Of a stretch of DNA of 39,220 nt, positions 1 to 39,220 are shown piece by piece. Numbering within the stretch: position 1 is the stretch's first letter; each line of letters opens with the position of its first letter. The translations under genes and the position numbers were made by a program. Below the pieces are notes generated by a model. That model was not told the origin of the DNA. It did not search any database and saw only the letters and a program-made list of their open reading frames with translations. Origin of the DNA: a virus (Duplodnaviria > Caudoviricetes); IMG/VR virus record IMGVR_UViG_3300019877_000004, positions 1 through 39,220 of that record; one strand, given 5' to 3'.

Positions 1-153
1 ATTCCAGAATTTACGAACCAGCTCTTTTCTGTCTCGTCCTTCAAGAGGGCCATTAAAGGCCCACATCTCGAATTCTTCTTTTAGTGTATTATGATCTTTT
101 TTCGTATATGACATTAAATAAGCAAAGAGAAAGACTGGCGCACCAAGCAACAA
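1..153. repeat. Terminal direct repeat, left copy (circular or circularly permuted genome overlap)
   Basis: 1-153 matches 39068-39220 except G127 vs T39194. Confidence 0.97.
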
Positions 154-179
154 AATGCACATTCCCCAAATGACGATTA

Positions 180-851
180 TCATCTAACACCTATCCTCTG
201 TTGAAGCTCTTTCATTTTGCTATAGGCTTGCTGCTTCCCAGCATTGCTAAAATCACCCTGTTGAGCATAGGGCGCGCTTCCTACTCCGCTTGGTTGGTAA
301 TAGGGGTTTCTACGATTAGCATCGACCTTGTCCTGTATAGTAGATTGCTTCTGTTCCGGCAAATGAAGCCCAAGGGCCTTTATATTCTTATAGACAAGCT
401 TTTGCCTTTCAAACCCATCTGGCATATCTAAGATCGCTTCTGCAAGCTCAGGGTCGTGCATTGCGAATTTCTCCGCATGCCCTAGAACATCCGAAAAATC
501 AGGATTGTTTTTAAGCCACGCCTCTTGTCTCTCCTTATAGATAGCTGTTTGGACAGCTTTTTGAATCTCTGATTGAGTCTCCTGCCTAGACTTTTCACCA
601 AATTTAGCCAGTTTCTTATCTAGCTTCTTGTGATCGACATAAGGTTCATCATCATTTTCCTCTGTATCATGGGCCTGTTGTTGACGACTCATTGCCTCTT
701 GGGCAGCTCTTTCAGCGTGCAAACGAGCTTCACGCTCCTGCTCAAGCTGTCGGTGGTACTTTGCTTCAAGCTGTCTGAAGTTATACTCTTTGTCATTCCG
801 TTTTTCTTCGGTTTGCTGTTGCTTTTCTTCGGTTTGTGTGGGTATTGTCAT
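180..851 (-). CDS. Probable capsid scaffolding protein
   Basis: Charged coiled-coil 223 aa, SD GAGGA, lies upstream of the major capsid gene across the circular junction. Confidence 0.7.
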   Translation of the reverse strand: MTIPTQTEEKQQQTEEKRNDKEYNFRQLEAKYHRQLEQEREARLHAERAAQEAMSRQQQAHDTEENDDEPYVDHKKLDKKLAKFGEKSRQETQSEIQKAVQTAIYKERQEAWLKNNPDFSDVLGHAEKFAMHDPELAEAILDMPDGFERQKLVYKNIKALGLHLPEQKQSTIQDKVDANRRNPYYQPSGVGSAPYAQQGDFSNAGKQQAYSKMKELQQRIGVR

Positions 852-862
852 AAATATCCTCT

Positions 863-878
863 GTCCATAACGCAGGAC
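863..878 (-). promoter_or_regulatory. RNA hairpin GTCC-TGCGTTAT-GGAC abutting the scaffold SD
   Basis: Same loop as the hairpin at 38901-38918 but with a different stem. Confidence 0.5.
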
Positions 879-898
879 TGCGAGTTAAAGGGTTACAA

Positions 899-932
899 GG
901 CGCATTAAACAAAAATCTATATTTGGTGTCAA
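899..932 (-). promoter_or_regulatory. Sigma70-type promoter for the scaffold gene
   Basis: TTGACA-N17-TTTAAT followed by GCGCC. Confidence 0.65.
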
Positions 933-933
933 A

Positions 934-1490: not shown

Positions 1491-1997
1491 ATGAGATATC
1501 TCTTATGTGCGTTAACATTAATGTGTGGGATCTGTATCAGTAAGCCAATCTTGGCATCAAGCAACGAGGAATCGTATAAATACATTTCAGGAGGCGCTAA
1601 CTTTATCGACAAGGCACCATGCCTATCTGTTGGATATAGACAACGATGGGAAGGAAACTTAGGATGGGATTCTGCCATTACATATGCCACACTTGGTGTA
1701 TCACATCATTTTAGTTGGCATGGTGTTGTTCATTACTATCTTAACGATGACAAAAATGCTCCCTATATTGGCGTTGGAGCACGTATCGGAGAAATGCTAT
1801 ACAATGCAGATAGACGTTGGATGGGAATGATTTCCGCGGATTATGTTATTGGAAAAGTACTAATGTCAGAAGGACATAGCAGCCATTTCGTTGAGATGCA
1901 CATTGCATCACCTACAGGATGGAGAGATCACACAACACATAATAAAGGCGTAAATGCCTCTCCTTTTGTGTTTCTTACCTATGGAGTAGCATTCTAA
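1491..1997 (+). CDS. Small outer-membrane beta-barrel protein (moron)
   Basis: Signal peptide, Gly/aromatic amphipathic strands (APYIGVGA), C-terminal YGVAF beta-signal, strong SD. Confidence 0.7.
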   Translation: MRYLLCALTLMCGICISKPILASSNEESYKYISGGANFIDKAPCLSVGYRQRWEGNLGWDSAITYATLGVSHHFSWHGVVHYYLNDDKNAPYIGVGARIGEMLYNADRRWMGMISADYVIGKVLMSEGHSSHFVEMHIASPTGWRDHTTHNKGVNASPFVFLTYGVAF

Positions 1998-3504: not shown

Positions 3505-5634
3505 TTAAATGGCCATTTCAAGGTTCTGAGGCGCCTCTTGCGGCTGACCCCCACCTTGATTACCCATTATACTAATAAAAAAATCATTTGCAAGAGAGGT
3601 TTGCTTTGCCTCAGCCTTTTCTACGTTCTCCTTCTGCTCATTTGCATAGTCAAACGACTGAATGCTGTTCAGCTTTAAAGACGTCTCAATCTCTCCATAT
3701 TTAGCTATTACATCAACAAGCTTCTCAAGGGCTTCCATCTTCGCCTTTGTTGCCATAGCGCGATTCTGTGTGATTTCTGATAGACGCTCTTCGAATAGAC
3801 CGATGTCGGCCTCAGCTCTTCCATGCCTTTCTCTAGCCATCGCCATATTAGCGGTTGCCTTTGTATAGAGTTCTTTAAGCTTCGCATCTTCGAAGGCGTG
3901 TTGTAGGTTTTGGGCCTCCTCGTTAACCGCGGCAGCCTGCTGCTCCTGTTGTTTCAAGAACTCAACGGCCTCTGCTTTTCCGGTGATGTTTAACTTAGGA
4001 ACGATCCTAGAAGGAGGGAACACCTCTCTTCCAAAACGCTCATTAACCTCAAACATCTGTTGGGCCTGTAAGTTCTGCTGTGTTGGTGTCAGATCGCTTT
4101 CGGCGACAATAACCTGATATTTAGAGAATATACGGCTATAGAAGTAAGGTGAGGGCTCTTCACCTAGATAAAGTTGAACCTTTTCCGCGTTCCAATTATT
4201 TAAAACAAGGCTTATAGTACGCTCTCCAAGCAGTTTATCTGAAAAGTCCCATTGGTCAAAATACTTCTGAAACACCATCAAGTTAGCAGCTGATTTAAGC
4301 AATGAGGTCAGGGCTGATATTTGCTTGTCGTTTTGACCAGCCCAGTTCTCCATATTGATACCGGAGGTATTATAGATAAGGTCGGACATTTGTTGCGCCA
4401 ATGCCAAATCTGACTCTGGAACTGCGCTAGGAACAATTTTCTCAACATCTGTTAGCTCATATCCCTCGTTAATGAGGATATCCCAACCTTGGCCAGACTT
4501 CTTAAGGTTGTCCTCGTTAGCAACAGCCCCCACCTTACGTTTCCAGCCAGCGTTAATTGTAGCCGCAGCGATGTCGTTATTTTGTATTACTTTATAATTG
4601 AAAAGAAACTGAGGGTCGCGCATAGTGCGCACCAACGATCTTACGCGTAAATCAAATTGGCTAATGTGTGGCTCATAGTTCCAATAATAGGGGACAAAAG
4701 GACATCCCTCGAATCCAAGAGGATTCTTTCCTTGATACATCAACTGATCGTTAAGAACGACGGCAAGCTTCCAACATGGTGCATCAACGCTAACCTCTTC
4801 AAGATCTGGGATGTTATATAGAATAGCCTCTAAATGCGCATCATCACCTGCGAAGTCAAAGAATTGATTCCTAGTCTTGCTGTAAAGGCGTTTTTTCTTT
4901 TCGCGCCACTTGTACCACACATAGCTAACAACCATTAGATCGTTGCGCGCCATGTTGTAGTTCTCAGGCAAAAAATAGAACCTACCATATGTTTGAGGGG
5001 TTCCAGCCATTGGCCTAACCATGTTTATCTTATCAGGAAAGCGCTGTTCAGCCTCTTGCTTAGAAATATACTCCTGACACCATATAAACGAGGCATCTGA
5101 CATGTCAGGGTTACGGAAATAGGGGTCAACCATGAATGAGTTATATTCCCATATCTTCATCTTGAGATCACCCTGAGCAACATCATCCCCAGTGAAATCA
5201 AGATATGGCTGCACAAGCACCATTCCAGATACGGCCGACAACTCCTTTGCCTTTGATCGCAACTCATGAAGGTTGCCCGCGTTCATAACATGCGTCATCA
5301 AACGCGTATATTGGTCTGTCGTTTGGCTGTCGCCCCCCTCTGTCGGTACATATGAGAACGTCTTACGGTGTTGGCGCTCATACCCTGTAATCATGTTCAC
5401 AGGCTGTTGGATGAGATTGAAATAATACTGCTGTTGCGATGTAGTGGGGCTAAAATTAAAGAAGCGGTTTACGAACGACTGGGAACCGGCATAGAAAAGC
5501 GTGTCGATGTTGGATTGATTCCATCGCGATTGTTCAATAGGTTGAAACTTTGAATAGAGATTATCAAGCCATTGACGAATATTGCCTTGGGAAGGCTCTT
5601 GGTTGTTATTCCATGGGGGGTAATAGAATGTAAT
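3505..5634 (-). CDS. Portal protein, P22-like (709 aa with proposed ATT start)
   Basis: Motifs FNLIQQPVNMITGYE, PFVPYYW, SLVRTMRDPQ...N and a C-terminal coiled coil; frame open 78 codons upstream of the GTG at 5400 to an ATT preceded by GGAGG. Confidence 0.85.
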   Translation of the reverse strand: MTFYYPPWNNNQEPSQGNIRQWLDNLYSKFQPIEQSRWNQSNIDTLFYAGSQSFVNRFFNFSPTTSQQQYYFNLIQQPVNMITGYERQHRKTFSYVPTEGGDSQTTDQYTRLMTHVMNAGNLHELRSKAKELSAVSGMVLVQPYLDFTGDDVAQGDLKMKIWEYNSFMVDPYFRNPDMSDASFIWCQEYISKQEAEQRFPDKINMVRPMAGTPQTYGRFYFLPENYNMARNDLMVVSYVWYKWREKKKRLYSKTRNQFFDFAGDDAHLEAILYNIPDLEEVSVDAPCWKLAVVLNDQLMYQGKNPLGFEGCPFVPYYWNYEPHISQFDLRVRSLVRTMRDPQFLFNYKVIQNNDIAAATINAGWKRKVGAVANEDNLKKSGQGWDILINEGYELTDVEKIVPSAVPESDLALAQQMSDLIYNTSGINMENWAGQNDKQISALTSLLKSAANLMVFQKYFDQWDFSDKLLGERTISLVLNNWNAEKVQLYLGEEPSPYFYSRIFSKYQVIVAESDLTPTQQNLQAQQMFEVNERFGREVFPPSRIVPKLNITGKAEAVEFLKQQEQQAAAVNEEAQNLQHAFEDAKLKELYTKATANMAMARERHGRAEADIGLFEERLSEITQNRAMATKAKMEALEKLVDVIAKYGEIETSLKLNSIQSFDYANEQKENVEKAEAKQTSLANDFFISIMGNQGGGQPQEAPQNLEMAI

Positions 5635-5712: not shown

Positions 5713-5907
5713 CTATTTTGGAGGCGGTGGCAATGGCATCCAATGGGTTACGCCTTCGATATAAGATCCTTCGAAGCATTCACAGGAACAAAACCAGCTT
5801 TTTATTGGAGATAAATACCCAGTATAAATACCCTCATCACAAAAAGCCAAAACACGGTCATGTCCATCAGGCAATTTATCCTTAACACTAATCCATTCCA
5901 TTTTCAT
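5713..5907 (-). CDS. DUF551 family protein
   Basis: WISVKDKLP...VTHWMPLPPPP. Confidence 0.85.
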   Translation of the reverse strand: MKMEWISVKDKLPDGHDRVLAFCDEGIYTGYLSPIKSWFCSCECFEGSYIEGVTHWMPLPPPPK

Positions 5908-6131
5908 TCCTTGGGTGGTGGTGGTAATGGCATCCAGTGTGTTGGTTTAGAATATGTCGTAAATGGAATTCCCCATTCATTTTCTGGCATTCTTTTATAA
6001 TCAGGGTGGCTTGCTAAGAAAATGTCTACTTCATCCCATGTTTGTGCAACCCAACACCTTTCTTCGTCTGTCACAAGAACATCTTTACCTGAAGGGGCTT
6101 TCTTATCTTTAACACTTATCCATTCACTCAT
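5904..6131 (-). CDS. DUF551 family protein
   Basis: WISVKDKKAP...THWMPLPPPP. Confidence 0.85.
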   Translation of the reverse strand: MSEWISVKDKKAPSGKDVLVTDEERCWVAQTWDEVDIFLASHPDYKRMPENEWGIPFTTYSKPTHWMPLPPPPKE

Positions 6132-6370
6132 ACGTCCTCAGGGGGTTTTGGTAAAGGCATCCAGTTAGTTACCTCATGTCCTTCCATTCCCCACGTAAGA
6201 TCGCCCGAGGTCACAGCATTGCTTTGATCTTGATCGCTCATCATTTCCCACATTCCTTGATACTGTCGTGCGATGGATAGTGGTGATGGTTCTCCACCTT
6301 CCTTTTTTGCAAAAACTATGCAATATTCATATGGTTCGGGCAACCTATCCTTAACGCTAATCCACTCCAT
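6128..6370 (-). CDS. DUF551 family protein (start revised to ATG 6370)
   Basis: MEWISVKDRLP...VTNWMPLPKPP; TAATG coupling to the upstream micro-ORF. Confidence 0.85.
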   Translation of the reverse strand: MEWISVKDRLPEPYEYCIVFAKKEGGEPSPLSIARQYQGMWEMMSDQDQSNAVTSGDLTWGMEGHEVTNWMPLPKPPEDV

Positions 6371-6417
6371 TATATATTCCTCGGTGGCCAGACTGGTTTT
6401 TGGCATTCAGCACACAT
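6370..6417 (-). CDS. 15-aa CxxC micropeptide MCAECQKPVWPPRNI
   Basis: SD AAGGAG-N5-ATG; paralog at 7652-7705. Confidence 0.65.
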   Translation of the reverse strand: MCAECQKPVWPPRNI

Positions 6418-7281: not shown

Positions 7282-7452
7282 TCATTTATCAAAATATCGT
7301 TTATAGTGTTCGCCAATTTTGTCTAGCTCTTGGACAAATTGTTTCCAGGAAAAACCTGCATCTAGATAAGCATCTACCCCAGAGAGTGATCTTGCGTTCT
7401 CTTTGAATTCCAAAGTCTTAGACTCATGTTGTGATAAGTATTCTTCAATCAT
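7282..7452 (-). CDS. 56-aa chimera: AlbA_2/Schlafen-like N-terminus fused to a phage gene C-terminus
   Basis: MIEEYLSQHESKTLEFKENARSLSG + VDAYLDAGFSWKQFVQELDKIGEHYKRYFDK; ExxxLEFK motif. Confidence 0.6.
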   Translation of the reverse strand: MIEEYLSQHESKTLEFKENARSLSGVDAYLDAGFSWKQFVQELDKIGEHYKRYFDK

Positions 7453-7487
7453 CCAAGTCAGCCCTTTTAAGTTGTCTAACTAGGAAA

Positions 7488-7655
7488 TTAACACGGAAGA
7501 AGACGGAAGTCAAGTATAGCCGTCCATAACGCATCCGCCCACAAAGTAGGCTCAATATCTGGATGTGAGTTCACAAGATCGCATAAAAGACCATAGGCCT
7601 TCTGTGTGTTTTCTTGGTCGTCTTCTAGAGAGGGCCTTATTCTTAAATCACTCAT
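7488..7655 (-). pseudogene. N-terminal part of a phage gene interrupted by an insertion
   Basis: MSDLRIRPSLEDD...IEPTLWADALWTAI then runs into promoter-like DNA; rejoins 7377-7282 in frame if 7378-7514 is removed. Confidence 0.55.
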
Positions 7656-8121: not shown

Positions 8122-8199
8122 GCTTCTCCTAAAGTGTGAAGCATGCAAGGATATAGTCTTTATCTCTTCATCAACACCAAGAGATTATGCGTTCATATC

Positions 8200-8255
8200 A
8201 TTTATACCTATTTATACCCATTTATACCTGGAATTGAGTGTAAATGTGTATAAAT
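8200..8255. repeat. Phased 10-bp repeats: 3x ATTTATACC plus 2 inverted GTRTAAAT
   Basis: Copies at 8200, 8210, 8220; inverted copies at 8238, 8248. Confidence 0.75.
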
Positions 8256-8363
8256 CATTCGCCAAAATCCCCATATCGATTCCATAAGTTGTTTTGCCTT
8301 TTCTATTGATGAATGCGGCATTCCGCCTTCGAATTCCACTTCTAATACATACTCACAATCCAT
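8208..8363 (-). CDS. 51-aa hypothetical MDCEYVLEVEFEGG...
   Basis: Hand-translated; SD AAGGGAG; C-terminus runs into the repeats. Confidence 0.4.
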   Translation of the reverse strand: MDCEYVLEVEFEGGMPHSSIEKAKQLMESIWGFWRMIYTHLHSIPGINGYK

Positions 8364-8612: not shown

Positions 8613-9902
8613 CTAAAACCTACTCCCTGTTGATCCATATTTATTCTGTTGCCATTCTCTAGCTCTTTGTTGATCTCTTGCTTCGTCATATACCGATATC
8701 CTGTGTGTGTAGGCTGCATAACGTGCCGCATCTATGCAATGGTCGTCTTTCTTTAACGGCTCATCATAGCCCTTCTCGGACTTTTTAGGGTCCCAGACGT
8801 ATGATTCTACCTCGCGTATCATATTTTCGCAAGCCTCACAGATGAGTATAGATCCCTTTTGTACTTCTGATACCATGAAGTTGATGCCGTTAAATACATC
8901 ATTGTTAGCATCTATTACATGAAATCCCCTCTTGCGTAGCTCAAGTTTAAAGGCTGCAGCGCTTGGGTCTACATATACGCTTTTAACCCCATAAGGCTCT
9001 AGGAATGCCTGTACATCATCACCATACTCGCTATTAGTCTTCTGGCGCCCCTTCTTCTTTGAGTCCCATACATATTCTTTCTCAAACCATCGCTGGGGTC
9101 CTGTCTGCGTATAACGCCCTGTATTCACACCCATGAGCATACATGCGAAGTTATTCGACGTGCCATAGTCAATACCAGCTACCCAATATTCGGCAGCAGT
9201 TGGGGGGCGTTTAACAACGTGTATCTTCTTGTCGAAGAAGTCGAAGATAGCCCCTTCAGCTAGGCACCAAAGGCCTAAGTAATTGCGCTTGTAGAATACG
9301 CCGGATAAGCTATCTCTTATGCGCTGCTTATACGATTGATCGACGAATGGGTTGTCTTCCAAGGTGAAGTGCAATGCATAATAATTAGGGTCACCGGCCT
9401 CTGCCTTATCAATCCACTCTTTAAGCTTGTGGTTCGGGTGTGAAGGGTTCATGCTTGCAAACCCCATGCTATACGGATTACTTAATCGCGTATCGATCAT
9501 GTCGATAATGCTCTCAGGATATAGTGTCATCTCATCGCAATAAACTAAACTGAAGGTTTTTCCCTGAAAAGAGCCGATCGCGCCCTCATCTCTCGCACCT
9601 AAAGTTGTTATCACTTTATCGCGAAACATAAGCTGTCTCTTACCTGCATACCATGTGCAAAAGGGCCTGAAAACCTCTAGTTGTGGTGATTCTAGAAGCA
9701 AACGAATGGCGTTCTGATAGATAGTGTCGCTTGAATGACCCACCATAAATATCTGCGAATCTGGGCATTGTGTGCAGGCGTGCATGAAACGAAATAGTGT
9801 TCCCACAGTCTTGCCAGAGCGAACCGAGCCATGCGCTAGGTTCCAATGAGCTGTTGAGTTTTTTAGAAACTCGATCTGCTTGCTCGATAAGGGTTTGTCC
9901 AT
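8613..9902 (-). CDS. terL: Terminase large subunit (PBSX-type), probable start ATG 9902
   Basis: Walker A GSVRSGKT, Walker B VYCDE, SMNP coupling motif, nuclease GIDYG, YVDPSA, DDHCIDAARY. Confidence 0.95.
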   Translation of the reverse strand: MDKPLSSKQIEFLKNSTAHWNLAHGSVRSGKTVGTLFRFMHACTQCPDSQIFMVGHSSDTIYQNAIRLLLESPQLEVFRPFCTWYAGKRQLMFRDKVITTLGARDEGAIGSFQGKTFSLVYCDEMTLYPESIIDMIDTRLSNPYSMGFASMNPSHPNHKLKEWIDKAEAGDPNYYALHFTLEDNPFVDQSYKQRIRDSLSGVFYKRNYLGLWCLAEGAIFDFFDKKIHVVKRPPTAAEYWVAGIDYGTSNNFACMLMGVNTGRYTQTGPQRWFEKEYVWDSKKKGRQKTNSEYGDDVQAFLEPYGVKSVYVDPSAAAFKLELRKRGFHVIDANNDVFNGINFMVSEVQKGSILICEACENMIREVESYVWDPKKSEKGYDEPLKKDDHCIDAARYAAYTHRISVYDEARDQQRAREWQQNKYGSTGSRF

Positions 9903-9909
9903 AAATGGC

Positions 9910-9938
9910 AATATAATATAAGAGGTATAAAAGGACAA
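9910..9938 (-). promoter_or_regulatory. Promoter predicting a leaderless terL mRNA
   Basis: TTGTCC-N17-TATATT-N7-ATG, no SD. Confidence 0.5.
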
Positions 9939-13334: not shown

Positions 13335-13390
13335 AAAATTTATCCTTTATGGTTTTAGATATCAATTTCCTTTTTTTTTGTCTCTCTTTT

Positions 13391-25099: not shown

Positions 25100-25100
25100 G

Positions 25101-28050: not shown

Positions 28051-29324
28051 TTTATTCTATATCCTGCTGGCAAAGTTCCAACTTCATTAGCGTTTACCGT
28101 TCCAACGACATTTCCATCCGCATCCATCACTTGGACTCTGGAAGCGTCCTCAGCTTCTTTTTCTAGAGAAGACATTTGATTTTCATTATCTAGATTTAGG
28201 TACTCATCATATAGACGATGAGTCTCATCTTGGATTAACATTGTAGCCAATTCATCAGCTTTCTCTTGAGGAATCCCTTCAAGAGTGTATTTCTTATAGA
28301 CTTTGTCTAGGGCGTTTTCGTATGCGGTATCCATTTCATTATTTAATTGAAGCATTTTTATTATTCGTGAACGCCCTTCTTCGCTATTCAGAAGTCCAGG
28401 ATATTGCTTCATATAGGAAACAAGGTCGAAATTTGTTACGCGTGAACCAAACGCATCTTTAGCACGATTCTGAAATCGAGAAATAATTTTTACCCATTCT
28501 TGAACTTCAGGAGAAACAACACCGGCCAATTGAGCGGCCCCATAAGGTTCTCCGCTTTCCGGATTAATAATTAAACTCTCTATGCCCTTCGGAAGTTTCT
28601 TGTTTAATTTGTCAAGACGCTTGAAATCCGCTGCATCTCTTTTGTCATTATATAGAGATGTTTTATTCTTTAAAAAGATGTCTGAATTTTCTTTTCTCCA
28701 TTGATTACGGGTATCTTTCCAATCCTTTAACGAATATCCTTGTGGTGGTTTAGTAAAATCAGGCCATTCAATATCTTTAGGGAGTTCCCCATTTTTCATT
28801 TGCGGTATTGGTTTTTCTGTTGATGCTTCTTTTTGTTTTTCCTTACCTGTAAAAGCTTCTTCTCCTGGGAAAAGTTGATTAACATCTCCTTGTCTTTTGG
28901 AAATATCAAATAGGTTTTCAGCTAATTTGGTCTTTGCTCCAGTAGGCATAGCCTGCCATAAATTGGCCGCCTTCTCGCCATAATTTTCTTTTATAGTTTT
29001 GTAAGTCTTCTTGTCCTCTATTTTCTCAGATTCTTCCTTCTTGGACTTTTGCTGACCTTCCAGAGACATCTTTTGTTGAAGCAAACTTTGCTCTTGTTGG
29101 CCTTTTAAATGTTGTCCCAAAAGTAGTTTACGAGTTTCTGGATCTAATCCTGTCGTATCTATGCCTAGTCGTTTAGCTGCTTGATTCGCAGCGGTCTCTT
29201 CTCGTTGATTAGCAAGTTTGGAAAAATACTGATTCACCGCCGAGGGGATCGCCTGTCCAACGCCCGTTAGGAATTGAGAAGCGGCTGAAGGGGGCTCTGC
29301 GGCCTGTTGATAGATCTGTACCAT
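28047..29324 (-). CDS. Probable internal virion/ejection protein
   Basis: Helical 425 aa; position. Confidence 0.6.
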   Translation of the reverse strand: MVQIYQQAAEPPSAASQFLTGVGQAIPSAVNQYFSKLANQREETAANQAAKRLGIDTTGLDPETRKLLLGQHLKGQQEQSLLQQKMSLEGQQKSKKEESEKIEDKKTYKTIKENYGEKAANLWQAMPTGAKTKLAENLFDISKRQGDVNQLFPGEEAFTGKEKQKEASTEKPIPQMKNGELPKDIEWPDFTKPPQGYSLKDWKDTRNQWRKENSDIFLKNKTSLYNDKRDAADFKRLDKLNKKLPKGIESLIINPESGEPYGAAQLAGVVSPEVQEWVKIISRFQNRAKDAFGSRVTNFDLVSYMKQYPGLLNSEEGRSRIIKMLQLNNEMDTAYENALDKVYKKYTLEGIPQEKADELATMLIQDETHRLYDEYLNLDNENQMSSLEKEAEDASRVQVMDADGNVVGTVNANEVGTLPAGYRIK

Positions 29325-29339
29325 TTCGTTGCTCTCCCT

Positions 29340-29960
29340 TTATTGTCTAGAACCTAACATTCCTGATGCAAAACCACCAACTCCGCCCGCCGCCGCACCT
29401 CCTGGCCCACCCGATAGAAGTCCACCAATAGCCCCTGGTATTGCTCCACCAAGGCCGCCTAGAAAGCCACCCCATGCGCTTGGCTTCTGCTGCTTATCGA
29501 CTAAAAATTGCTCATAGGGCCTCTGTGAAAGGAGATTGCTACCTAATCCCATCAATTCTCTGATGGCTTGTTGTTGGAGTGACTGTCTCCTTGATTGGAG
29601 GTCTTGAGCAAAATTTGATGAAGCTTGTGACATATCATTTTGAAAGCCGCTGCTTTGTCGAGATCCAAAACTTCCTTTGCCACCCATGCCACTAAAACGA
29701 GATGCAATGTTGCCTTGCTGCGCATTAAACTGTCTAAAGGCAGGCGCTTCCATCTCGTCAAATATTCCTTCTTCCCCGGCACCCAAGCGCGATAGATAGC
29801 TTTCAGGAGAAACATGCTGAAATAGTTGTTTGAATAGGCTCATCATCTCAGGCGTGAAGTTTCCTAGTTGCCCAAGCTTCATGCCCTTTGGGGTTATGTT
29901 TCCTACTGTTGAACCTGTGGGACCTTTCCCAGAGAATGGGTTTGATAGACCGTATGACAT
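29340..29960 (-). CDS. Probable ejection/pilot protein (start revised to ATG 29960)
   Basis: Gln-rich core with Gly-zipper C-terminus; GAGGTG-N6-ATG. Confidence 0.65.
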   Translation of the reverse strand: MSYGLSNPFSGKGPTGSTVGNITPKGMKLGQLGNFTPEMMSLFKQLFQHVSPESYLSRLGAGEEGIFDEMEAPAFRQFNAQQGNIASRFSGMGGKGSFGSRQSSGFQNDMSQASSNFAQDLQSRRQSLQQQAIRELMGLGSNLLSQRPYEQFLVDKQQKPSAWGGFLGGLGGAIPGAIGGLLSGGPGGAAAGGVGGFASGMLGSRQ

Positions 29961-30027
29961 GTTTAACACCTCGCGTGTCTTGTTTCCTTTACTATAGCGT
30001 AAAGATAAATTTATTACCTATGTTTTC

Positions 30028-30528: not shown

Positions 30529-33500
30529 TTATACAAGTAGTTGAGATGGTGATACGTCTAACACAAAGCTGTGAAGTTCTATCTCGGCAAATTGTGAATC
30601 GGGCGCTACAATAACACCCACTCCACCTGAAGTATAAAGTGTGAATGCTGTGGAATCGACGTCAATCGTGATTGTTGTTGCTGTTGTTGAGATGATGTTA
30701 TAGTTGTTTGGATTTGCTAAGGAAGAATCAAAATTCAGCTGCGTCATGCCTTGCACACCGGTTATCTGTATTAGATCATCCGCACTTAAAGTGTTAACGG
30801 CATTCAAAACACAAGGATATGCTTGTGAAGCACCTGTAATAGTCACAAAGATATCTCCAGGGGTAAGAGAACGCATTTGATCTTCTGAGAGTGTAATAGC
30901 AACTTGTACAGTATCGCCAATCAATGAGGTGTTTTTTCTATGCCATATTTGGTCTTGTTGAATTGCAGTAGGGGTTTGCAAGTTTATGTTAGATGGTGTT
31001 AGGCCTATATTAATGCTTTCTGGGCATGTATAGAGTATCGTGCTATAAATCAAGGAACTATTAACTACGTTACCGCTAGGAACGATAGGGCCATCGTTAT
31101 ATGCACTAGACGCGTTTTGACTTAAAAATATAAGCAAACTTACTTGAGCTTTTTCAGTTGCTTCTAGAAGATATTGCTGAGGGCCAAGGCGTGTTTTTCT
31201 ACCCATATCCCAAGCCAAAGGAAATTGCTTTGTTTGGATAAATGGAACGTACATACGGGTGATTAATCCAGATCCTAGATATGTCGGAGATCCCAACAGT
31301 GTAGGGTTTAGTATGAATGTATCTTTGGTGGCAGAAGTCACAGAAAATATCTTATTGTTGACTTGGGCAGAAACGGTTCCCAGGCATTCCGAAATGATAA
31401 TGAAATCACCGTTATTTAAACAGTGATCATAACAAGTAACGGTGCTTCCAGAGAAACTGGTAATTGCAAGTGAGGACTCTTCCGTTGTTCCATCATCTCT
31501 AGTAAACACAAACCCTTGTTGATTTCCTGCAATGACGATAGGAGCCAGTAGAGTGGTAGAGCCAGCATTCCAGGGTTCATTCCATTGACGCCATGAATGA
31601 AATTGATTTCCGATATTTAACCAGGTGTATCCTGTGCGTCTTCGGAATAGTCCATACGTAGTATATGTCTCATCGAAAATACCCCATGAATTATCCCTAT
31701 AGTTATATTGTAATGTCTGATTTGGATAAAGGTATGTTGCATTTGCAGTCGCTACAGGATAAGTAAAATAGGCCCATTCCGTGATGAAATCCCGAAAAGC
31801 AGTTATGCGTTCTGCACCATTATCAAGTTGCTTAATCTGAAAAGTTTGATCAGGGATCTCAAGATCTAGTCGTTGAGATTGTGTTTGACTTGTGATTATA
31901 AAACCTCTGAAACCGCGCGTCATCACCCCTTGGTCCATATTGATGATCGAGAATGTGCTGCTTGTTCCGAACTCCGAGTTAACGAAAAAGAAGTTAAATG
32001 GCACAAGATCGCTACCAGAATAAATAAGCTTAGCTTGAAGACCAGAAAAGCCTAAGATCACCACATCTTCATTTAAAGAAGCCGAAACGATGGGTTGATC
32101 GATGCCAGCCTTGACAAACCCACCAAAACCAAAGACATCTTCGAAATATGCAGGAGCGTTTGCTACCTGATTATCTGGAACCAAGAAGGGGGTAAATATT
32201 GTTTGAGAGGATATGGGATCACCGGTGAAGGAAGAAGTATAATACGGAGTTCCATTCTGACTATAGATTATCGTATCTCGAAGATATATTTGGCTGTTGG
32301 GTGATGATGTTTGAACGACTGGCCCAAAGAAAAGAAGCCTATCCTTGAAAGGTAAAATCATCCTAGCGCCAACCAAGTAGTATTTGGCCGCTGGAAGATT
32401 GGATATTGAAAATATTGAATTAGATAATGGTGGAGCGAAATTGACCCATCCATGCCCACCATTTAGTGTAGGGCTTGTAGGGTTACCGTTCGTTGGATCA
32501 CCATCAAAAAAACGTAGGCTGTCTTTTGTTACGTCTGCACGATTTGTTAGATACTGTGCAATGCCGCCAGTTGTATAAGCGCCTCCTAAGGTAGCATTAG
32601 GAAAGACAACCGTCACAGTGTTTGCGTTTACAACAACCGTCACATATCCTGTTTGATAATTGATTCCAGTTATACCGTTGACCTCATTTATATAAACGAA
32701 ATCCCCTACAACCAACCCATGAGCTACAATTGTAAGATTGGCAGTTGCAGGAGGCCCAGGAACAAGTATGGCGACACCTGTAATGTTCTTGTATTGCATA
32801 CCGATGTTAGTGATCGAGAAAGGTATCGTTATGCCGTTTGTAGCCCACAAGGCACCTTGATAATTAGTGGTCCAAAATTGCTGATAATTGGCTCCATTCC
32901 ATGTAGTTGGTGTCGGGGTTGTCTTTGGAATATAACTAACAGGCATTCCAAGAGTTGATGGGTTCTTGTAGAAACTAACGTCGTAGGCTATGTTAGGGGC
33001 GGTTTGCGTGATATAATAAGAATATACCGTATCGAATGCAAGAGTGCGCGGGAAGTCAATATCTGTTGCCTCTTCTTCTTCTAAACCCATTACAGGGAGA
33101 GCTGGATGGTAAATAAAAACAGCTGTGTAGGAACTCCCCGCTTGCGCTGGGATTGTAATAACGCCCGTCGCATAATTGATGGTGTTGACTCCACCTGTAC
33201 CTGTAGGTGTTAAATATCCGTCTAGTGTCGGATCGGTAAAAGGCCCTCCAGGTCCAGTCAACGTAACAGTACCCGGAACAATATTTCCATGAGATTGAAG
33301 TCCGAAACCAGTAAGTAAATTACCAACACCACTTCCGTTTAGGGTTATGGTTGTCGAGCCAGAGTTATAAGAGATAGAGGTTGAGTTAAAAAAACGTTGT
33401 AGGCGTACTAAGAGAGATGTTCCACGCTTTCTTTTTACACGACCACGCCATTGATATGCGTTAATTAATCTTGGAAATGAGTCATTGTCGATCACGAATG

Positions 33501-33558
33501 CTGTTACATCATTCCTTAAACCGCGATTTATAGGTCCGACAACGATCTTATGACCCAT
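30529..33558 (-). CDS. Tail nozzle / tubular protein B-like, with inserted E1-FCCH-like modules
   Basis: 1009 aa; RGRVKRKRG N-terminal motif, FKDRLLFF, YNYRDNSW propeller-like motifs. Confidence 0.7.
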   Translation of the reverse strand: MGHKIVVGPINRGLRNDVTAFVIDNDSFPRLINAYQWRGRVKRKRGTSLLVRLQRFFNSTSISYNSGSTTITLNGSGVGNLLTGFGLQSHGNIVPGTVTLTGPGGPFTDPTLDGYLTPTGTGGVNTINYATGVITIPAQAGSSYTAVFIYHPALPVMGLEEEEATDIDFPRTLAFDTVYSYYITQTAPNIAYDVSFYKNPSTLGMPVSYIPKTTPTPTTWNGANYQQFWTTNYQGALWATNGITIPFSITNIGMQYKNITGVAILVPGPPATANLTIVAHGLVVGDFVYINEVNGITGINYQTGYVTVVVNANTVTVVFPNATLGGAYTTGGIAQYLTNRADVTKDSLRFFDGDPTNGNPTSPTLNGGHGWVNFAPPLSNSIFSISNLPAAKYYLVGARMILPFKDRLLFFGPVVQTSSPNSQIYLRDTIIYSQNGTPYYTSSFTGDPISSQTIFTPFLVPDNQVANAPAYFEDVFGFGGFVKAGIDQPIVSASLNEDVVILGFSGLQAKLIYSGSDLVPFNFFFVNSEFGTSSTFSIINMDQGVMTRGFRGFIITSQTQSQRLDLEIPDQTFQIKQLDNGAERITAFRDFITEWAYFTYPVATANATYLYPNQTLQYNYRDNSWGIFDETYTTYGLFRRRTGYTWLNIGNQFHSWRQWNEPWNAGSTTLLAPIVIAGNQQGFVFTRDDGTTEESSLAITSFSGSTVTCYDHCLNNGDFIIISECLGTVSAQVNNKIFSVTSATKDTFILNPTLLGSPTYLGSGLITRMYVPFIQTKQFPLAWDMGRKTRLGPQQYLLEATEKAQVSLLIFLSQNASSAYNDGPIVPSGNVVNSSLIYSTILYTCPESINIGLTPSNINLQTPTAIQQDQIWHRKNTSLIGDTVQVAITLSEDQMRSLTPGDIFVTITGASQAYPCVLNAVNTLSADDLIQITGVQGMTQLNFDSSLANPNNYNIISTTATTITIDVDSTAFTLYTSGGVGVIVAPDSQFAEIELHSFVLDVSPSQLLV

Positions 33559-33562: not shown

Positions 33563-34138
33563 TTAATATCCTATTGCCAGGTATTGCCAAACCGTCCCAA
33601 CTGTAGTGGCGGCTGTTGTAAAAGACGCAGCTGTCTTTGCTATTACAGATGGAAAATTTATACCAGCACCATTAGTTACAGGAGTAATAAATACACCTAA
33701 GGTGGCATTAGGAAAAGCAGCAGCATAAGCAGTCACTACAGGGTTTGGATTATTTCCTATAAAAGTTCCACCTTTGATAATCATCCCACCAAAGAGAAAG
33801 GTGCTGTAGGATGCTACGCTTGTATTGTAATATTGCGTTGAGCTTTGAGCAGCATTTCCTGAATAGTAAAACAGCTCTGGTAGAGAACCTATACCCGCAT
33901 TTGGAGCCATCGTTTTAATGAATAATTGCGGAGGGCTTACAGGTGGTACAGGAACATAACTTGTGTCTATGTTGAAGTGAATTGCTTTATGCTCACCTCC
34001 ATTGTTTACGGCAAGAGTGATATGATCCACGGCAATAATATCTTGTATAGAATTAGTGTTTTCCTCCATTAGAGGTTGATCGGATGATGGGTTATTCGGG
34101 CCATCTGGAGTATTTCGATTGTATTTGAAGTTCGTCAT
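33563..34138 (-). CDS. Short tail fibre-like protein
   Basis: GMIIKGG...AFPNA...YLAIGY C-terminal fibre tip pattern. Confidence 0.6.
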   Translation of the reverse strand: MTNFKYNRNTPDGPNNPSSDQPLMEENTNSIQDIIAVDHITLAVNNGGEHKAIHFNIDTSYVPVPPVSPPQLFIKTMAPNAGIGSLPELFYYSGNAAQSSTQYYNTSVASYSTFLFGGMIIKGGTFIGNNPNPVVTAYAAAFPNATLGVFITPVTNGAGINFPSVIAKTAASFTTAATTVGTVWQYLAIGY

Positions 34139-35340
34139 ATGGATGTTCCTCCGATGTTGTTTAAACCATTCTGTCCGTTGTTGATTCCTTGACTATAAAT
34201 CGTCTGCGTGCGATCATTTGTCCACTGACGCTGACTGCGTTTCCAAACAAGTAGCTCCTGCTCTTTGAAGAGGGGTTCATAGAATTGGAATTGTTCTACG
34301 TCGCCAGTGTCAGATAGTATTTTTCTAGCTGCGCCACGCGCAATGTATTCAGCCATGTAGCCGAAGGGGATAGCGGCTTCAGTGTTGAAGAAAGCGGCAG
34401 GGGACAGATAAGCATCCATCTCTATGAGATATTGCCTATCTGGTGGCGAGCGTAGTGTAAGAGTGTTATTGTAATATAATATGGACCGTGGAAGACCTGT
34501 TTGGAAATAATAATATTGGCAATAGATTGTCACCCCTGAAGGGATAGCTGTTGGGAAATACACATTAGTGGCAACACCCGTAAGATAATTGATGGTATTT
34601 TGCGTGGTTGTATAGCCGTTAACTAATGCTGTGTTCCCATACGGTGCCGACCCCGGGGTCATGAGAAGGCCAAGATTAATGTTACTAGTCAGGAATTGAC
34701 CACTGTCACTGACAACAATGTTGCTTCCGTCTGTATTGGTTGCTGTGAAATAAACAGCAGGAAAGATACTCGTGGTGGGGATCGCGGTATTGATCGTTGT
34801 GCCAACAGGTGGATCGACATTAGCGGCTGTGGCAATAATGCCTGTAATGTCCACGTGCCCTCGCAATATTGCGTTAACTGGATTATTCAATGGGGTTTGA
34901 TTTCCAGGGGACAAAGGTACGGTTATGGTATATGGACCAGTGGTCCCATTACCTTGAGTAAAGGTGGCCGCATTTTGTGTGACATTCGGCCAGACATTGA
35001 AGAAATTATTCTTTTGTGTCTGCAATGGTGTTTGGATGCCGTTTATGTAAGCCGGGGAGACAAATCCCTGGTAAACAGGATATGATGCAATGCTTGGTTG
35101 CGCATTAACACCTGTTGTTTGGGTCTGTAAGTTGTATAAAGGCATGTTGTAGCGATCAACTCCAGGTTGTGTCTGGAATTGATATGACGTTTTCAAATCG
35201 AAGACTTGCATGCGCGCGTCGACATCTGCGATCCAAAACCTGTTAATATAGTCAATCAACAGGTCATCGGTTATGTCTGCATTCGAAGGGCTCTTGATTA
35301 TCCTACGGACGTAGGTAATAATATCTTGCAGTAGATTAAT
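34135..35340 (-). CDS. Head-tail adaptor / tubular protein A-like (401 aa with proposed ATT start)
   Basis: Frame open 27 codons upstream of TTG 35259 to ATT, with AGGAG 6 nt before; extension gives the adaptor-type helix LQDIITYVRRII...DLLIDYIN. Confidence 0.7.
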   Translation of the reverse strand: MNLLQDIITYVRRIIKSPSNADITDDLLIDYINRFWIADVDARMQVFDLKTSYQFQTQPGVDRYNMPLYNLQTQTTGVNAQPSIASYPVYQGFVSPAYINGIQTPLQTQKNNFFNVWPNVTQNAATFTQGNGTTGPYTITVPLSPGNQTPLNNPVNAILRGHVDITGIIATAANVDPPVGTTINTAIPTTSIFPAVYFTATNTDGSNIVVSDSGQFLTSNINLGLLMTPGSAPYGNTALVNGYTTTQNTINYLTGVATNVYFPTAIPSGVTIYCQYYYFQTGLPRSILYYNNTLTLRSPPDRQYLIEMDAYLSPAAFFNTEAAIPFGYMAEYIARGAARKILSDTGDVEQFQFYEPLFKEQELLVWKRSQRQWTNDRTQTIYSQGINNGQNGLNNIGGTSI

Positions 35341-35341
35341 T

Positions 35342-35890
35342 TCATGCTCCTAAGAATATCGATTTTTGTGTAGATACTGGCAACGCATCCAGACGTTGAA
35401 CTGTCGATTCAGCAGACATAGTGCCATAATATTGACCATGTCCATCTGAATTTGTTGCTTTATCGACCATTTTTAAGGTGTGATATTTACAACGCTTAAT
35501 CTGTTCTGCAACATATCTGGGGGCCCAAACCTTCTTCGCCACAGGCACTTTCCACCATTCGGCAGGCATGCCAGGGAAAGGCTTTGTCCACATATCGATG
35601 TCTTCACCGATGATCTCGTTGTTTTGAGCTTGAAAGAGAACGTACTCCTTCTGGAATTCGTATTCTTTGCGATAGGCATCGTTAAACTTTTCCTTACTTC
35701 CGATTGCACGATGTGGCTTAATGTAAATCTCTCCATCTTTTTGATTAGGATGTTGCGGAGCAACTTCCTTTATAGGAGCCCTGTTAAGTGTGTCGAGGTC
35801 AAGAGACCTAATAACCTTCTCCTGTACCTGAAATTGCTCTTCCATTTTAACAAGTTCTTGTTGGCCTTCCACGTCTACTTTTGGTTTCAT
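35342..35890 (-). CDS. Hypothetical protein in the head-tail region
   Basis: 182 aa; SD AAGGAG. Confidence 0.75.
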   Translation of the reverse strand: MKPKVDVEGQQELVKMEEQFQVQEKVIRSLDLDTLNRAPIKEVAPQHPNQKDGEIYIKPHRAIGSKEKFNDAYRKEYEFQKEYVLFQAQNNEIIGEDIDMWTKPFPGMPAEWWKVPVAKKVWAPRYVAEQIKRCKYHTLKMVDKATNSDGHGQYYGTMSAESTVQRLDALPVSTQKSIFLGA

Positions 35891-35907
35891 ATGTAAATCA
35901 CTCCTTT

Positions 35908-36570
35908 TTAGTTCGGTGATATGTTGATAAAGCTTCCAGGGATGTTTGTAGAGGTCTGCACTGGACCTGTAGATGATGTAATCCCATTGTTGATATCTCC
36001 AACGGCTAGCACCTGGGCTGCGGTTTGAGGCACATTTGATAGAGATGCAACGCCTCCTGATGCATAAGCAGAAAAACCAGCTGTTGCTATAGTTACAGTA
36101 AATGATGTTGAGGAAACAGTTGCGATTGTGCCTACGAGAGTATTGATTTCAGTCATTCCTCCAACGCCACTAAATACCACTAGAGCACCTCTGTTGAAGT
36201 AGTTATTTGCAGTTACCGTGATTGAGGATGGGGTATTAACGACTATGTTCGTTATATCTGCTGTGTATGGGGTGGGGATAAAGGCATTCGCTTGCCTGGA
36301 GTCCATATCAGTAACTAAATCTGTAGAGGATGGGAGTGAAATTACATAAGATGGCTGCTCATTGAGCTGATATGACCCAAAAATTGGCGGTATGATTAGT
36401 CTTATAAGTTGGCCTATCACGTAATTATGATCCTCTGAGGTCGTTATTTGTGTCGTTAGACCCCTAGTAATAGCAGAGACATCAAAACGGCTTGGTTGAT
36501 AGAATTGAGGCTCTATTGGCACGTTTGCGTATGGTGGTACTGGATAAGAAATTACGCCTGTCAAGGTCAT
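35908..36570 (-). CDS. Virion protein with two E1-FCCH-like modules
   Basis: HNYVIGQLI and GALVVFSGVGGMTEIN...TAGFSAYASGG. Confidence 0.7.
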   Translation of the reverse strand: MTLTGVISYPVPPYANVPIEPQFYQPSRFDVSAITRGLTTQITTSEDHNYVIGQLIRLIIPPIFGSYQLNEQPSYVISLPSSTDLVTDMDSRQANAFIPTPYTADITNIVVNTPSSITVTANNYFNRGALVVFSGVGGMTEINTLVGTIATVSSTSFTVTIATAGFSAYASGGVASLSNVPQTAAQVLAVGDINNGITSSTGPVQTSTNIPGSFINISPN

Positions 36571-36595
36571 CTAGTTGCCTCATTTCTAAAGGGGA

Positions 36596-36624
36596 GATAG
36601 GGGCCCTCGGAAGGGCACCCTATC
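36596..36624 (-). terminator. Strong hairpin after the capsid genes (terminator or stabiliser)
   Basis: GATAGGG-GCCCT-CGGA-AGGGC-A-CCCTATC on the + strand. Confidence 0.6.
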
Positions 36625-36669
36625 AGAACAATTCTCAAAATGCATTAACTAAAGATTTAATTCAATGTA

Positions 36670-37797
36670 TTAAGGAATGCTCATATCATGTAGGAACGCT
36701 TCCCAGAAAATTACATTCCCTGCAGCCCCTACAAGCACTGATGTTGTCAGGTTCGTACCTGCTCCAATACCTACAATGAAACCTTGAGATGTGTTATTGA
36801 CGAACGCGCCACGGATGGCAGGCCCGTTAATAGTATTCACCTCAGTTGTTCCAATTGGTTCAAATACAGGAGGAGGATAAAGAGCTGAACCAGCCGATAT
36901 CAATTGTCCACCAGTGTTTACATCGCCAACAGCTACGATTTGAGGAAGGGATCTTCCTGCCGAACCTGCAAAGGTTACGTTGCTATTGAATGCTGTATAA
37001 GCAGTAGAATCGATATTGACCACAACAGTGTTGTAATCCGTTACCGCGATCACGTATCCATAGATCGGAGATCCAGGAGTTGGTGGGTTTGGCAATGAAT
37101 TCAACTGGGTTGTTGCCCAATCACTAGGAATACGGAACGCAACTTCTTGACCAACACGGAAGTTATGTGCATCCGTTGTATCAATTGTTGTGGTTGATCC
37201 TGTTGTGATTGCACTGATTACTGTGGTTCCAGGGAAATACAGGTAAGGGTATAAGACCTTCTTAACCGTAGCTCCTGATGGAGACCCAGATAATGCAGTG
37301 TAGTTCGATTGGTTGGTGTTCCAAGGGATTGTGAAGGTTGTTAAACCTGTCACGGTCACTGTAAAAGGAACGCCCTGGATTTGCTGCATACCTGTTGTAG
37401 TAGACTGATAAAGACCCTGGAAAACGACCACGTCACCACTTGTTAAACCGTGGTTAGTTGTGGTAGTAACGACCGCAGGATTTGCCTTGGTGATACCACT
37501 GATTGCTAAAGTAGGTCCATATTGAAGAAGTTGACCTGCTGCAAATGTGCTAATACCGTTAGCAATAACAGTGTCCCATATAATGGCAGGAGTTGCGTTA
37601 TATCCTTGTTGGATAGCAAATCCCTGTCCCATATTAGCATCCCATTGAGCTGCAACGACGTTTTGTGAAGTTGCTGCTGCGTTGGATGTTGTGTAGTTCA
37701 TAATTCTTACAAAATCAGGCTGGAAAGGCAGATTAACAATCTGCGCTCCGCCTGTAGATGTAAATCTACCTTTTGCCGCTCTTGAATATTCAGTCAT
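36670..37797 (-). CDS. Capsid decoration / minor capsid protein with E1-FCCH-like modules
   Basis: Immediately after the MCP; ISGITKANPAVVT...HGLTSGDVVVF. Confidence 0.7.
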   Translation of the reverse strand: MTEYSRAAKGRFTSTGGAQIVNLPFQPDFVRIMNYTTSNAAATSQNVVAAQWDANMGQGFAIQQGYNATPAIIWDTVIANGISTFAAGQLLQYGPTLAISGITKANPAVVTTTTNHGLTSGDVVVFQGLYQSTTTGMQQIQGVPFTVTVTGLTTFTIPWNTNQSNYTALSGSPSGATVKKVLYPYLYFPGTTVISAITTGSTTTIDTTDAHNFRVGQEVAFRIPSDWATTQLNSLPNPPTPGSPIYGYVIAVTDYNTVVVNIDSTAYTAFNSNVTFAGSAGRSLPQIVAVGDVNTGGQLISAGSALYPPPVFEPIGTTEVNTINGPAIRGAFVNNTSQGFIVGIGAGTNLTTSVLVGAAGNVIFWEAFLHDMSIP

Positions 37798-37798
37798 C

Positions 37799-38779
37799 TT
37801 AAACCCCCAAGTTGCTTAAGCGTGTGCTTAAGAGGTTTCTGATAGCTGTATCTTGAGTCAACGCTTGCGCTTGAGCGAATTTAACCGCTAGCGTAGCATT
37901 CTGAGCCAACATACCTGAATAGTTAGGATCACGATAGATCAAGCGCATTGAGTAGCCGTCTTGGTCGATGTGTGTGATGGCCTGTTTTCCTAAAACGGTG
38001 TTGTAGTAAACATCATTTAAGGTTCCTGAGCTGTTTGTAGCTGCGTTTCTTGCAACCGGAGCCTCGGAGCTTGTCAAAATACGGATATTGTAAACAGATC
38101 CATATTCTGATGGCAACGCAGATGCGTTTGTGGGGTAGTTCCACTGAGAGAGGAATCCACTACCAACTAGAGCATCGAAATCGCCTTGTAGCTCTGTTGA
38201 GGACAGCATAAAGTATGCTGAACGCACAGGGCCGGTACCGAAACGATCCATACCTTCGATACCGCTCATGAATTTATAAGCGTTATTTGTATCTAGGGTT
38301 GCTGCAACGAGACTGAAATCGGAAATCCCTAAGTTTGTAGGGTTGAATCCGTTAGATCCGCCACCAGCGTTGATTTGAGATGCGGCAGAAACGATATAGT
38401 CCCTAAGGATCAAATCTTCTGCTTGTCTCATAGCAACAGCTAGACGCTCAGACACCCATGCTAATACACCCTCTTGGTCTTGGAGAACAACTTGTTCGTT
38501 GATGATACAGCCAGTACCGAAGAAAGCCATTTGTGCATCGATGATGTCGCGTTGTGGAATTTGTGCTGGGGGGTCAATCCCAGAATTTCCCAACTGGATT
38601 GTTGGGGGAGTTAACGCCCTAGGGCGCATAAAACGGCAAGTTGTACCACCATTTGATGGTAGACTTACCTTATCACATACTGTGATGTAGTTCATTGATG
38701 GGGTTGGGACATAGAGCATCGCAGGCGCAAGCGACTGGAGGATCATCGGGCCCAAATTACCCGTGGTCGTAATTGACAT
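37799..38779 (-). CDS. Major capsid protein (N4-gp56 family-like)
   Basis: 326 aa; LPSNGGTTCRFMR, EYGSVYNIRI, VLGKQA patterns; downstream of the scaffold. Confidence 0.85.
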   Translation of the reverse strand: MSITTTGNLGPMILQSLAPAMLYVPTPSMNYITVCDKVSLPSNGGTTCRFMRPRALTPPTIQLGNSGIDPPAQIPQRDIIDAQMAFFGTGCIINEQVVLQDQEGVLAWVSERLAVAMRQAEDLILRDYIVSAASQINAGGGSNGFNPTNLGISDFSLVAATLDTNNAYKFMSGIEGMDRFGTGPVRSAYFMLSSTELQGDFDALVGSGFLSQWNYPTNASALPSEYGSVYNIRILTSSEAPVARNAATNSSGTLNDVYYNTVLGKQAITHIDQDGYSMRLIYRDPNYSGMLAQNATLAVKFAQAQALTQDTAIRNLLSTRLSNLGV

Positions 38780-38929
38780 CTCAAACCTTTTGGTCTGTAT
38801 GTTTAATACGATATGATGATCGGTAGACGAGCCTAACTTACGTCAATTTTCGATCATATCCAATGGAGGGGAGCGATTTCCTCTAACGCTATGAATGTAG
38901 TGCCCTTAACGCAGGGCAAGAGCGTAATA
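38780..38929 (-). ncRNA. Structured 5' leader of the major capsid gene
   Basis: Stems TGCCCT/AGGGCA, GAGG/CCTC, GATATGATCG/CGATCATCATATC, GACG/CGTC in 150 nt of non-coding DNA. Confidence 0.55.
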
Positions 38930-39220
38930 TTACCTATACATTTTTTTCTTTATATTGGCAACCTGCGATTTATTTAGCCCTTTTTCTTGAGCATACAGGT
39001 TAATCATCATCCCTAAAGCATCCTCTAGATGATCGGTGACAAAGACGGGGTGTTTAGGATGCCTTTCATTCCAGAATTTACGAACCAGCTCTTTTCTGTC
39101 TCGTCCTTCAAGAGGGCCATTAAAGGCCCACATCTCGAATTCTTCTTTTAGTGTATTATGATCTTTTTTCGTATATGACATTAAATAAGCAAATAGAAAG
39201 ACTGGCGCACCAAGCAACAA
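38930..39220 (-). CDS. 106-aa membrane-anchored protein spanning the circular junction (starts at 183)
   Basis: MIIVIWGMCILLLGAPVFLFAYL...; ATG 183-181 overlaps the scaffold stop (ATGA). Confidence 0.7.
   Translation of the reverse strand: MLLGAPVFLFAYLMSYTKKDHNTLKEEFEMWAFNGPLEGRDRKELVRKFWNERHPKHPVFVTDHLEDALGMMINLYAQEKGLNKSQVANIKKKMYR
39068..39220. repeat. Terminal direct repeat, right copy
   Basis: 152/153 identical to 1-153. Confidence 0.97.

Follow-up and report, generated by a model that had tools for sequence, protein, structure and literature searches.

Which host does the phage represented by the IMG/VR virus record IMGVR_UViG_3300019877_000004 infect? The record was analysed over its whole length (positions 1–39,220, here called the window) and is a genuine, complete podovirus genome of about 39 kb with a circular map. 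The original prediction, made without database searches, was that this phage may infect Chlamydiota. Our searches support that proposal. The window contains DNA and genes shared specifically with chlamydial chromosomes, and because the closest matches of these genes and short DNA pieces lie in chromosomes of environmental chlamydiae, we consider an environmental member of Chlamydiota the likely host, with a probability of roughly 0.87. A captured DNA piece and two membrane proteins, each compared with control groups, all point to Chlamydiota, and a second captured element, the dif sites of related phages and a distant relative integrated in the genome G290 point in the same direction.

Chlamydial DNA and gene families in the window

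The features that bear most directly on the host are the following.

7375..7517, minus strand: captured chlamydial DNA, a conserved upstream element and the opening 25 codons of a Schlafen/AlbA_2-RecG_C gene of 446 aa (DNA match)
8197..8260, minus strand: captured palindrome, found in chlamydial chromosomes ahead of an AAA_16 ATPase gene whose coding part the window lacks (82–94% DNA match)
1491..1997, plus strand: 8-stranded outer-membrane beta-barrel of a chlamydial family (homologues; model pLDDT 80.6)
25951..26232, plus strand: small transmembrane (TM)-coiled-coil protein with a Cys-Cys tail, chlamydial family (homologues)
25059..25949, plus strand: SPFH/band-7 membrane protein (family match; phrog_200, a common phage family)

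The three features named in the original prediction (the proteins encoded from 1491 and 25951 and a gene fragment at 7452) are all present in the window at the stated places. For the fragment, a BLASTN comparison of positions 7378–7514 had been suggested, and the chlamydial match spans 7375–7517, almost exactly as proposed. Identity is 87% over 143 nt in one chlamydial genome (G094), 85% in G028, on a 258-kb contig, 80% in G100 and 77% in G239, and the coding part shares 24 of 25 amino acids with the chlamydial copy; the remainder of the gene is missing from the window. Searches of window DNA against Chlamydiota covered 7180–7720 and 8000–27000, with two candidates scored per genome. Any match to the captured piece was found in 22 of 250 Chlamydiota genomes and a match within the element in 19 (three matches fell outside the element and were dropped, and one genome was not scored), compared with none inside the element in 201 Pseudomonadota and 121 Bacteroidota, each of which sets yielded one weak match outside it. 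Plasmids gave no match, and an exact search of viral contigs for the captured upstream motif was negative. An exact search across metagenomes returned four stretches: the window itself, a short contig, and two contigs that belong to a single organism. The RseP flanking the element in that organism aligns over its full length with two chlamydial genomes, at 55% and 40% identity, and matches three others only in part. The idea that the element is a sigma-70-type promoter was unsupported by a consensus scan.

The search of 8000–27000 matched 14 of 200 Chlamydiota genomes: six at the palindrome 8197–8260, three at the SPFH gene, one through a contig of G129, two at short small-gene stretches and two at low-complexity DNA. 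The palindrome lies directly before the start of the AAA_16 ATPase gene in five of its six chlamydial genomes, and a hairpin at 8180–8280 is weakly above shuffled sequences (z −1.8). Three relatives of the phage (L002, L082, L087) also carry this motif. Each captured piece is the 5′ regulatory region of a mobile chlamydial gene, oriented along the phage minus strand; PADLOC matches of the AlbA and AAA genes are partial only. The two pieces could be promoters or repressor decoys, and they were likely picked up by recombination during replication in a chlamydial host. A small basic open reading frame (ORF) at 12298–12390 on the minus strand is 82–93% identical at the DNA level over 30–56 nt to the chlamydial chromosomes G191 and G160.

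The likeness of the 1491 barrel to proteins of environmental chlamydiae, noted in the original prediction, was borne out by counts: homologues occur in 16 of 181 Chlamydiota, the best at 35–37% identity with E from 1e-22 to 1e-27 and in chromosomal settings, compared with 0/41, 0/71 and 0/71 in three control sets. The model consists of a leader helix and eight long strands, and structurally it comes closest to 8-stranded outer-membrane barrels (OprF: Z 9.2, root-mean-square deviation 3.1, 103 residues aligned); Foldseek returned nothing at E ≤ 0.001, the best E being about 0.01. The barrel is also present in the relative L016. The 25951 protein, likewise proposed to be chlamydial, matched 9 of 251 Chlamydiota and none of 131 Pseudomonadota, and its Cys tail does occur in chlamydial chromosomes (G100, G132, G244). 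A profile of its family matches three of five complete relatives. Global homologue searches with both proteins returned only one relative and the query itself; for 25951, the ESM Atlas gave generic TM-coiled-coil clusters with no chlamydial label, and plasmids gave no match. The adjacent SPFH gene is 65–66% identical in nucleotides and 45–60% in amino acids to chromosomal genes of three chlamydial genomes. The nearest relative of the phage, G771, has the barrel as well as a small-gene tandem that shares about 50% identity with one in the chromosome of G244. When five chlamydial TM-coiled-coil genes were searched by tblastn against 94 partial loci of relatives, only one locus matched.

An integrated distant relative and dif sites

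Capsid-like matches were found in 8 of 400 Chlamydiota genomes. In G290 a 35.7-kb element (G290:C1 41,995–77,722; loci L175, L174, L115, L116) has the same layout as the window, lies within a 137-kb contig and carries 17-bp direct repeats at its ends. Its flanks include kdsB-pyrG-ruvX, with PyrG 73% and 62% identical to two chlamydial genomes versus 53–55% to three others. The SSB-like protein and YqaJ exonuclease of the window are 53% and 35% identical to those of this prophage. No integrase was seen in the element, and at the right end a SocA-type antitoxin cassette occurs in duplicate. Elsewhere, a solitary capsid-gene relic lies in a low-GC chlamydial chromosome (G176:C4 208,722–209,393; L113), and a capsid-like match in G159 (E 3e-4) was set aside as it had no phage context.

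The 17-bp repeats of the G290 element are read as dif-type sites. The corresponding pattern has exactly one copy in each of five chlamydial genomes and none in five other genomes, and 14 of 19 published dif rows with the same left arm are from Chlamydiae (PMC3025954). Chlamydial-type dif sites occur in four of five complete relatives and in two phages from chlamydial bins (G154 and G257). Nine distinct exact sites were found in the 94 partial loci compared with none for the reversed pattern. Sites in free phages each have a different central hexamer (L222:16877, L224:9738, L226:3330, L228:7086, L121:484, L109:1933). Across IMG/VR (L250–L369) the motif occurs in about 1000 stretches compared with about 130 for the reversed pattern, the former including 4–5 kb contigs that may be microviruses. 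The site is missing from the window, from G771 and from the contigs of G003, G004, G129 and G308.

The published layout of the XerC/D dif site is 28 bp (PMC5357621). A dif-like site without an integrase is the mark of IMEX elements (CTX, VGJ, TLC, GGI and dif-type double-jelly-roll phages; PMC5357621, PMC12715192), and by sequence this combination appears to hold for four of the five complete relatives, whereas it does not for the window. The dif-type ends of the G290 element are a further likeness; the IMEX described in these sources differ in being non-tailed phages and islands.

The phage family and alternative hosts

The phage belongs to an uncultured family. At least 257 IMG/VR stretches, out of 260 candidates, are capsid relatives, the best 80 at 82–94% identity; no close relative is cultured, the best capsid match among phage records being 22%. 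Capsid matches of about 1.2–1.4 kb instead of 0.98 kb in L087–L094, L005 and L010 are consistent with intron insertions. Genes for a ParA-type ATPase and a ParB-like protein (L220:2942–3595, L226:2400–2882, L228:3577–4035) in relatives hint at plasmid-like maintenance, and G771 encodes a ParA-type ATPase. The 15.9-kb contig G129:C25 (L230) has a terminase large subunit (TerL) with 73% amino acid identity, tail genes, a transposase and a HicB-like gene, with no head block or host flanks; its TerL runs straight into the nozzle gene, and this close relative looks like a decaying prophage.

The chief result that weighs against a chlamydial host concerns this family. In GTDB genomes, close capsid relatives occur on 14 contigs of metagenome-assembled genomes (MAGs), 13 of which are binned outside Chlamydiota, with one in a Chlamydiia bin and two in archaeal bins. 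The host could thus be a free-living diderm (Bacteroidota, Nitrospirota, Acidobacteriota or deltaproteobacteria) or a Patescibacterium, with the chlamydial matches as relics of rare transfer. The same dif left arm is found in other phyla in 5 of the 19 published rows (Thermodesulfovibrio, Syntrophobacter, Desulfococcus, Zymomonas and Acidobacterium; PMC3025954), and the contigs G003 and G004 from non-chlamydial bins have no dif site, barrel or Cys-tail genes. However, none of the 14 contigs exceeds 41 kb, they are scattered across the portal tree, and their bins comprise archaea and at least four bacterial phyla. Because of this spread the bin labels were rejected as host evidence, and we infer that free phage contigs were mis-binned; the tree, which has no outside outgroup, cannot reveal a chlamydial clade. 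The original prediction would have been refuted by hits falling consistently in another phylum, and the binned close relatives are instead spread over many phyla, archaea included. With four separate loci of the window pointing to Chlamydiota, we find a host of this kind very unlikely.

A different candidate is a second bacterial inhabitant of the same amoeba or ciliate (Legionellales-like, Holosporales or Babelota), which would have obtained chlamydia-like DNA from a mobile gene pool shared by endosymbionts. Both captured elements belong to mobile types of genes, one capsid-bearing MAG is assigned to Legionellaceae, and a short form of the AlbA upstream element is present in 3 of 41 genomes of the proteobacterial order of G002. 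Those copies match over 31–38 nt only, their genes are about 50% identical and they share 15 of 25 amino acids, where the chlamydial copy shares 24. None of these 41 genomes has the barrel, and G430 of that order lacks the exact dif form, so that we regard such a host as improbable. The chlamydial pieces might also be an assembly chimera in a phage of an unrelated host, as short foreign-looking inserts in a metagenome contig could suggest. This explanation we consider exceedingly improbable: an 8.8-kb contig from run X1 (possibly the source run of the window) covers 5400–9000 with one difference, a second study (X2) contains identical 151-nt pieces at 7389–7539 and 7561–7711, which reach only 22 letters beyond the junction, and the same gene families occur in relatives.

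Several other observations also count against the chlamydial assignment. The control sets represent two phyla, with Verrucomicrobiota, Planctomycetota, Babelota and Patescibacteria omitted. The best DNA identity is 87%, and therefore the actual host has not been found. Six of the nine matches of the 25951 protein are to coiled-coil repeats only. The G290 prophage is distant (portal 25%), falls outside the tight family and has a long branch in a quickly made tree; its 17-mer attachment repeat is absent from the window with up to three mismatches allowed. With a scoring profile trained on 12 of the dif sites, none was detected in the window, where the best score is 15.8 and shuffled sequences reach 18.2. 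Finally, 60 of 80 flanked viral dif loci share no core gene with the window, and for this reason the motif is not exclusive.

Gene content, related systems and a possible life cycle

Completeness of the genome, also claimed in the original prediction together with circularity and a podovirus gene set, is confirmed by the portal, TerL, capsid and nozzle genes, a terminal direct repeat of 153 nt with one mismatch between its copies (1–153 and 39068–39220), and one ORF that crosses the junction of the circular map. CheckV estimates the record as 99% complete, and its IMG/VR topology label is "linear". A separately assembled contig of run X1 extends 15.4 kb beyond base 1 of the window. A second contig of that run (34,498 nt), with a partial match to 5489–5574, is possibly a further family member. 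The remaining features are as follows.

1..153, no strand: terminal direct repeat (assembly overlap), left copy (1 mismatch to 39068–39220)
180..851, minus: likely capsid scaffold (position only; no family match)
3505..5400, minus: portal, P22-like (Pfam PF16510, E 3.5e-48)
5713..6406, minus: three DUF551 genes, variable region (family match)
8613..9938, minus: TerL (family match)
9964..10239, plus: GroES-like co-chaperonin (family match)
11030..11485, minus: likely terminase small subunit (position and homologues in relatives; no family match)
12918..15734, minus: early module with Holliday-junction resolvase-like protein, DnaC-like loader, replication initiator and Cro-like helix-turn-helix protein (family matches)
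15900..17577, plus: SSB-like protein and YqaJ exonuclease, recombination (family matches)
17981..24339, minus: likely tail fibre/appendage genes with Gly/Thr-rich repeats (conserved in relatives; window copies without family match)
24468..24764, plus: HTH_17 excisionase-like regulator (family match)
26341..29969, minus: three likely ejection proteins (position after the nozzle only; no family match)
30529..33558, minus: podovirus tail nozzle (predicted structure, pLDDT 83)
33563..37797, minus: likely adaptor and head/tail accessory genes with E1_FCCH-like domains (family matches; relatives)
37799..38779, minus: major capsid protein, N4-gp56 family (passes the NCBIfam TIGR04387 cut-off)
39068..39220, no strand: terminal direct repeat, right copy (repeat comparison)

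Portal, TerL and an HK97-lineage major capsid protein, which define Caudoviricetes, are all present. The model of the 1009-aa nozzle, the longest ORF of the window, matches nozzles of A4, SU10, Pa223, VP1, T7 (gp12) and P22 (gp10) at E from 8e-18 to 4e-8. No tape-measure or sheath family was found among the 58 window ORFs scanned, and a weak 53-residue "major tail protein" PHROG match falls inside the nozzle gene; gene content and model thus indicate a podovirus with a short-tail nozzle. The likely scaffold gene lies 467 nt before the capsid gene when the circle is closed; 84 of 94 relative loci have a homologue of it, and in 53 of 83 relatives this homologue lies upstream of the capsid gene at a distance of no more than 1 kb. 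Three structural genes in 30529–37797 contain beta domains resembling E1_FCCH (ubiquitin-activating enzyme) above the Pfam cut-off. The initiator and loader occupy 13391–15291 and the YqaJ nuclease 16711–17577; plasmid searches with YqaJ gave distant proteobacterial matches only. The window has no tRNA. Its 58 ORFs include no recognised integrase (remote homologues are not excluded) and no endolysin or other lysis family (unrecognised lysins are possible), and neither kind was found in two sets of 91 ORFs from relatives, mostly drawn from 144 ORFs of at least 105 aa without a window homologue.

The phage resembles P22/APSE-type podoviruses in its P22-like portal, nozzle fold and lambdoid-style early region; it differs in the N4-gp56-family capsid and in that no integrase or lysozyme was found. 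APSE infects an endosymbiont, as the phage analysed here would. The temperate, P22-like Lederbergvirus has its own integrase and a lysis cassette, neither of which was seen among the window ORFs. N4-like phages (Schitoviridae) have genomes of about 70 kb and a giant virion RNA polymerase, and the window, with 39 kb and no ORF above 1009 aa, has only the capsid family in common with them. A tailed phage of an alphaproteobacterial symbiont inside a cryptomonad was reportedly described by George et al. in 2023, a system alike in tail, endosymbiont and protist and different in host phylum. Older microscopy is said to have revealed phage-like particles in Neochlamydia and in clam chlamydiae.

The characterised chlamydial phages are Chlamydiamicrovirus (Gokushovirinae, Microviridae), tailless single-stranded DNA phages of 4.5–5 kb with hosts in Chlamydiaceae (PMC4589997, PMC5010888). 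The inferred chlamydial host is what the window has in common with them, whereas its 39-kb double-stranded genome encodes a portal, terminase and nozzle. Earlier signs that tailed phages reached environmental chlamydiae are phage-group genes, tail tip protein L among them, on chlamydial plasmids (PMC7846284), and a Protochlamydia island that contains a terminase gene (PMC5010888); these are fragments and not a complete genome, and do not represent a podovirus family. Unclassified viruses of Chlamydiales predicted by iPHoP in protist single cells, mentioned in one sentence with no genome description (PMC12644861), share the three-tier idea and the host order and may overlap with the present family. 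CRISPR systems exist in environmental chlamydiae, with spacers for which no match was found (PMC5010888), and chlamydial CRISPR is more widespread (PMC8242063). The available parts of PMC11338181 and PMC7734683 held nothing relevant. A literature search that did not cover subscription papers turned up no account of a complete tailed phage of chlamydiae. The plasmid phage genes and host predictions were thus in print as earlier hints; the second captured chlamydial operator (8197–8260), the chlamydial-type dif sites of relatives and the integrated distant relative without an integrase are new here.

We propose that the virion would use its fibres to attach to the envelope of the chlamydia. By analogy with chlamydiamicroviruses, attachment would probably take place on the extracellular infectious stage, and the phage would then be carried into the eukaryotic cell and replicate in dividing bacteria. 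Chlamydial biology suggests a protist as this cell, and it could be an animal cell instead. DNA would be ejected through the nozzle and replicated with the initiator and DnaC-like loader, and the YqaJ system may capture host DNA. Because many relatives have a chlamydial-type dif site and no integrase, they would use the XerC/XerD of the host, for integration or dimer resolution; their varied central hexamers suggest that integration may be host-specific or rare. The window phage, having no detectable dif site, would be lytic or episomal. We guess that exit relies on small membrane proteins, which would act on a host that has little peptidoglycan; a role of the 1491 barrel in superinfection exclusion is equally a guess.

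We lean, if only slightly, towards the broader view that environmental chlamydiae are the hosts of the whole family of about 40-kb genomes (hundreds of IMG/VR contigs, capsid identity 82–94%), which would then be a major group of tailed viruses not yet described. Its members would be temperate through host XerC/XerD at dif, would lack an endolysin and, inside eukaryotic cells, would carry membrane genes and regulatory DNA from one chlamydial chromosome to another. Such a widespread tailed family would offer a concrete target for the unmatched chlamydial spacers and a way for genes to enter obligate intracellular bacteria, and the dif site may serve as a sequence marker for host assignment and lifestyle. 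It would also make possible a direct test in amoeba co-culture of the way in which a tailed phage gets to a bacterium living inside another cell, persists there and leaves it again.

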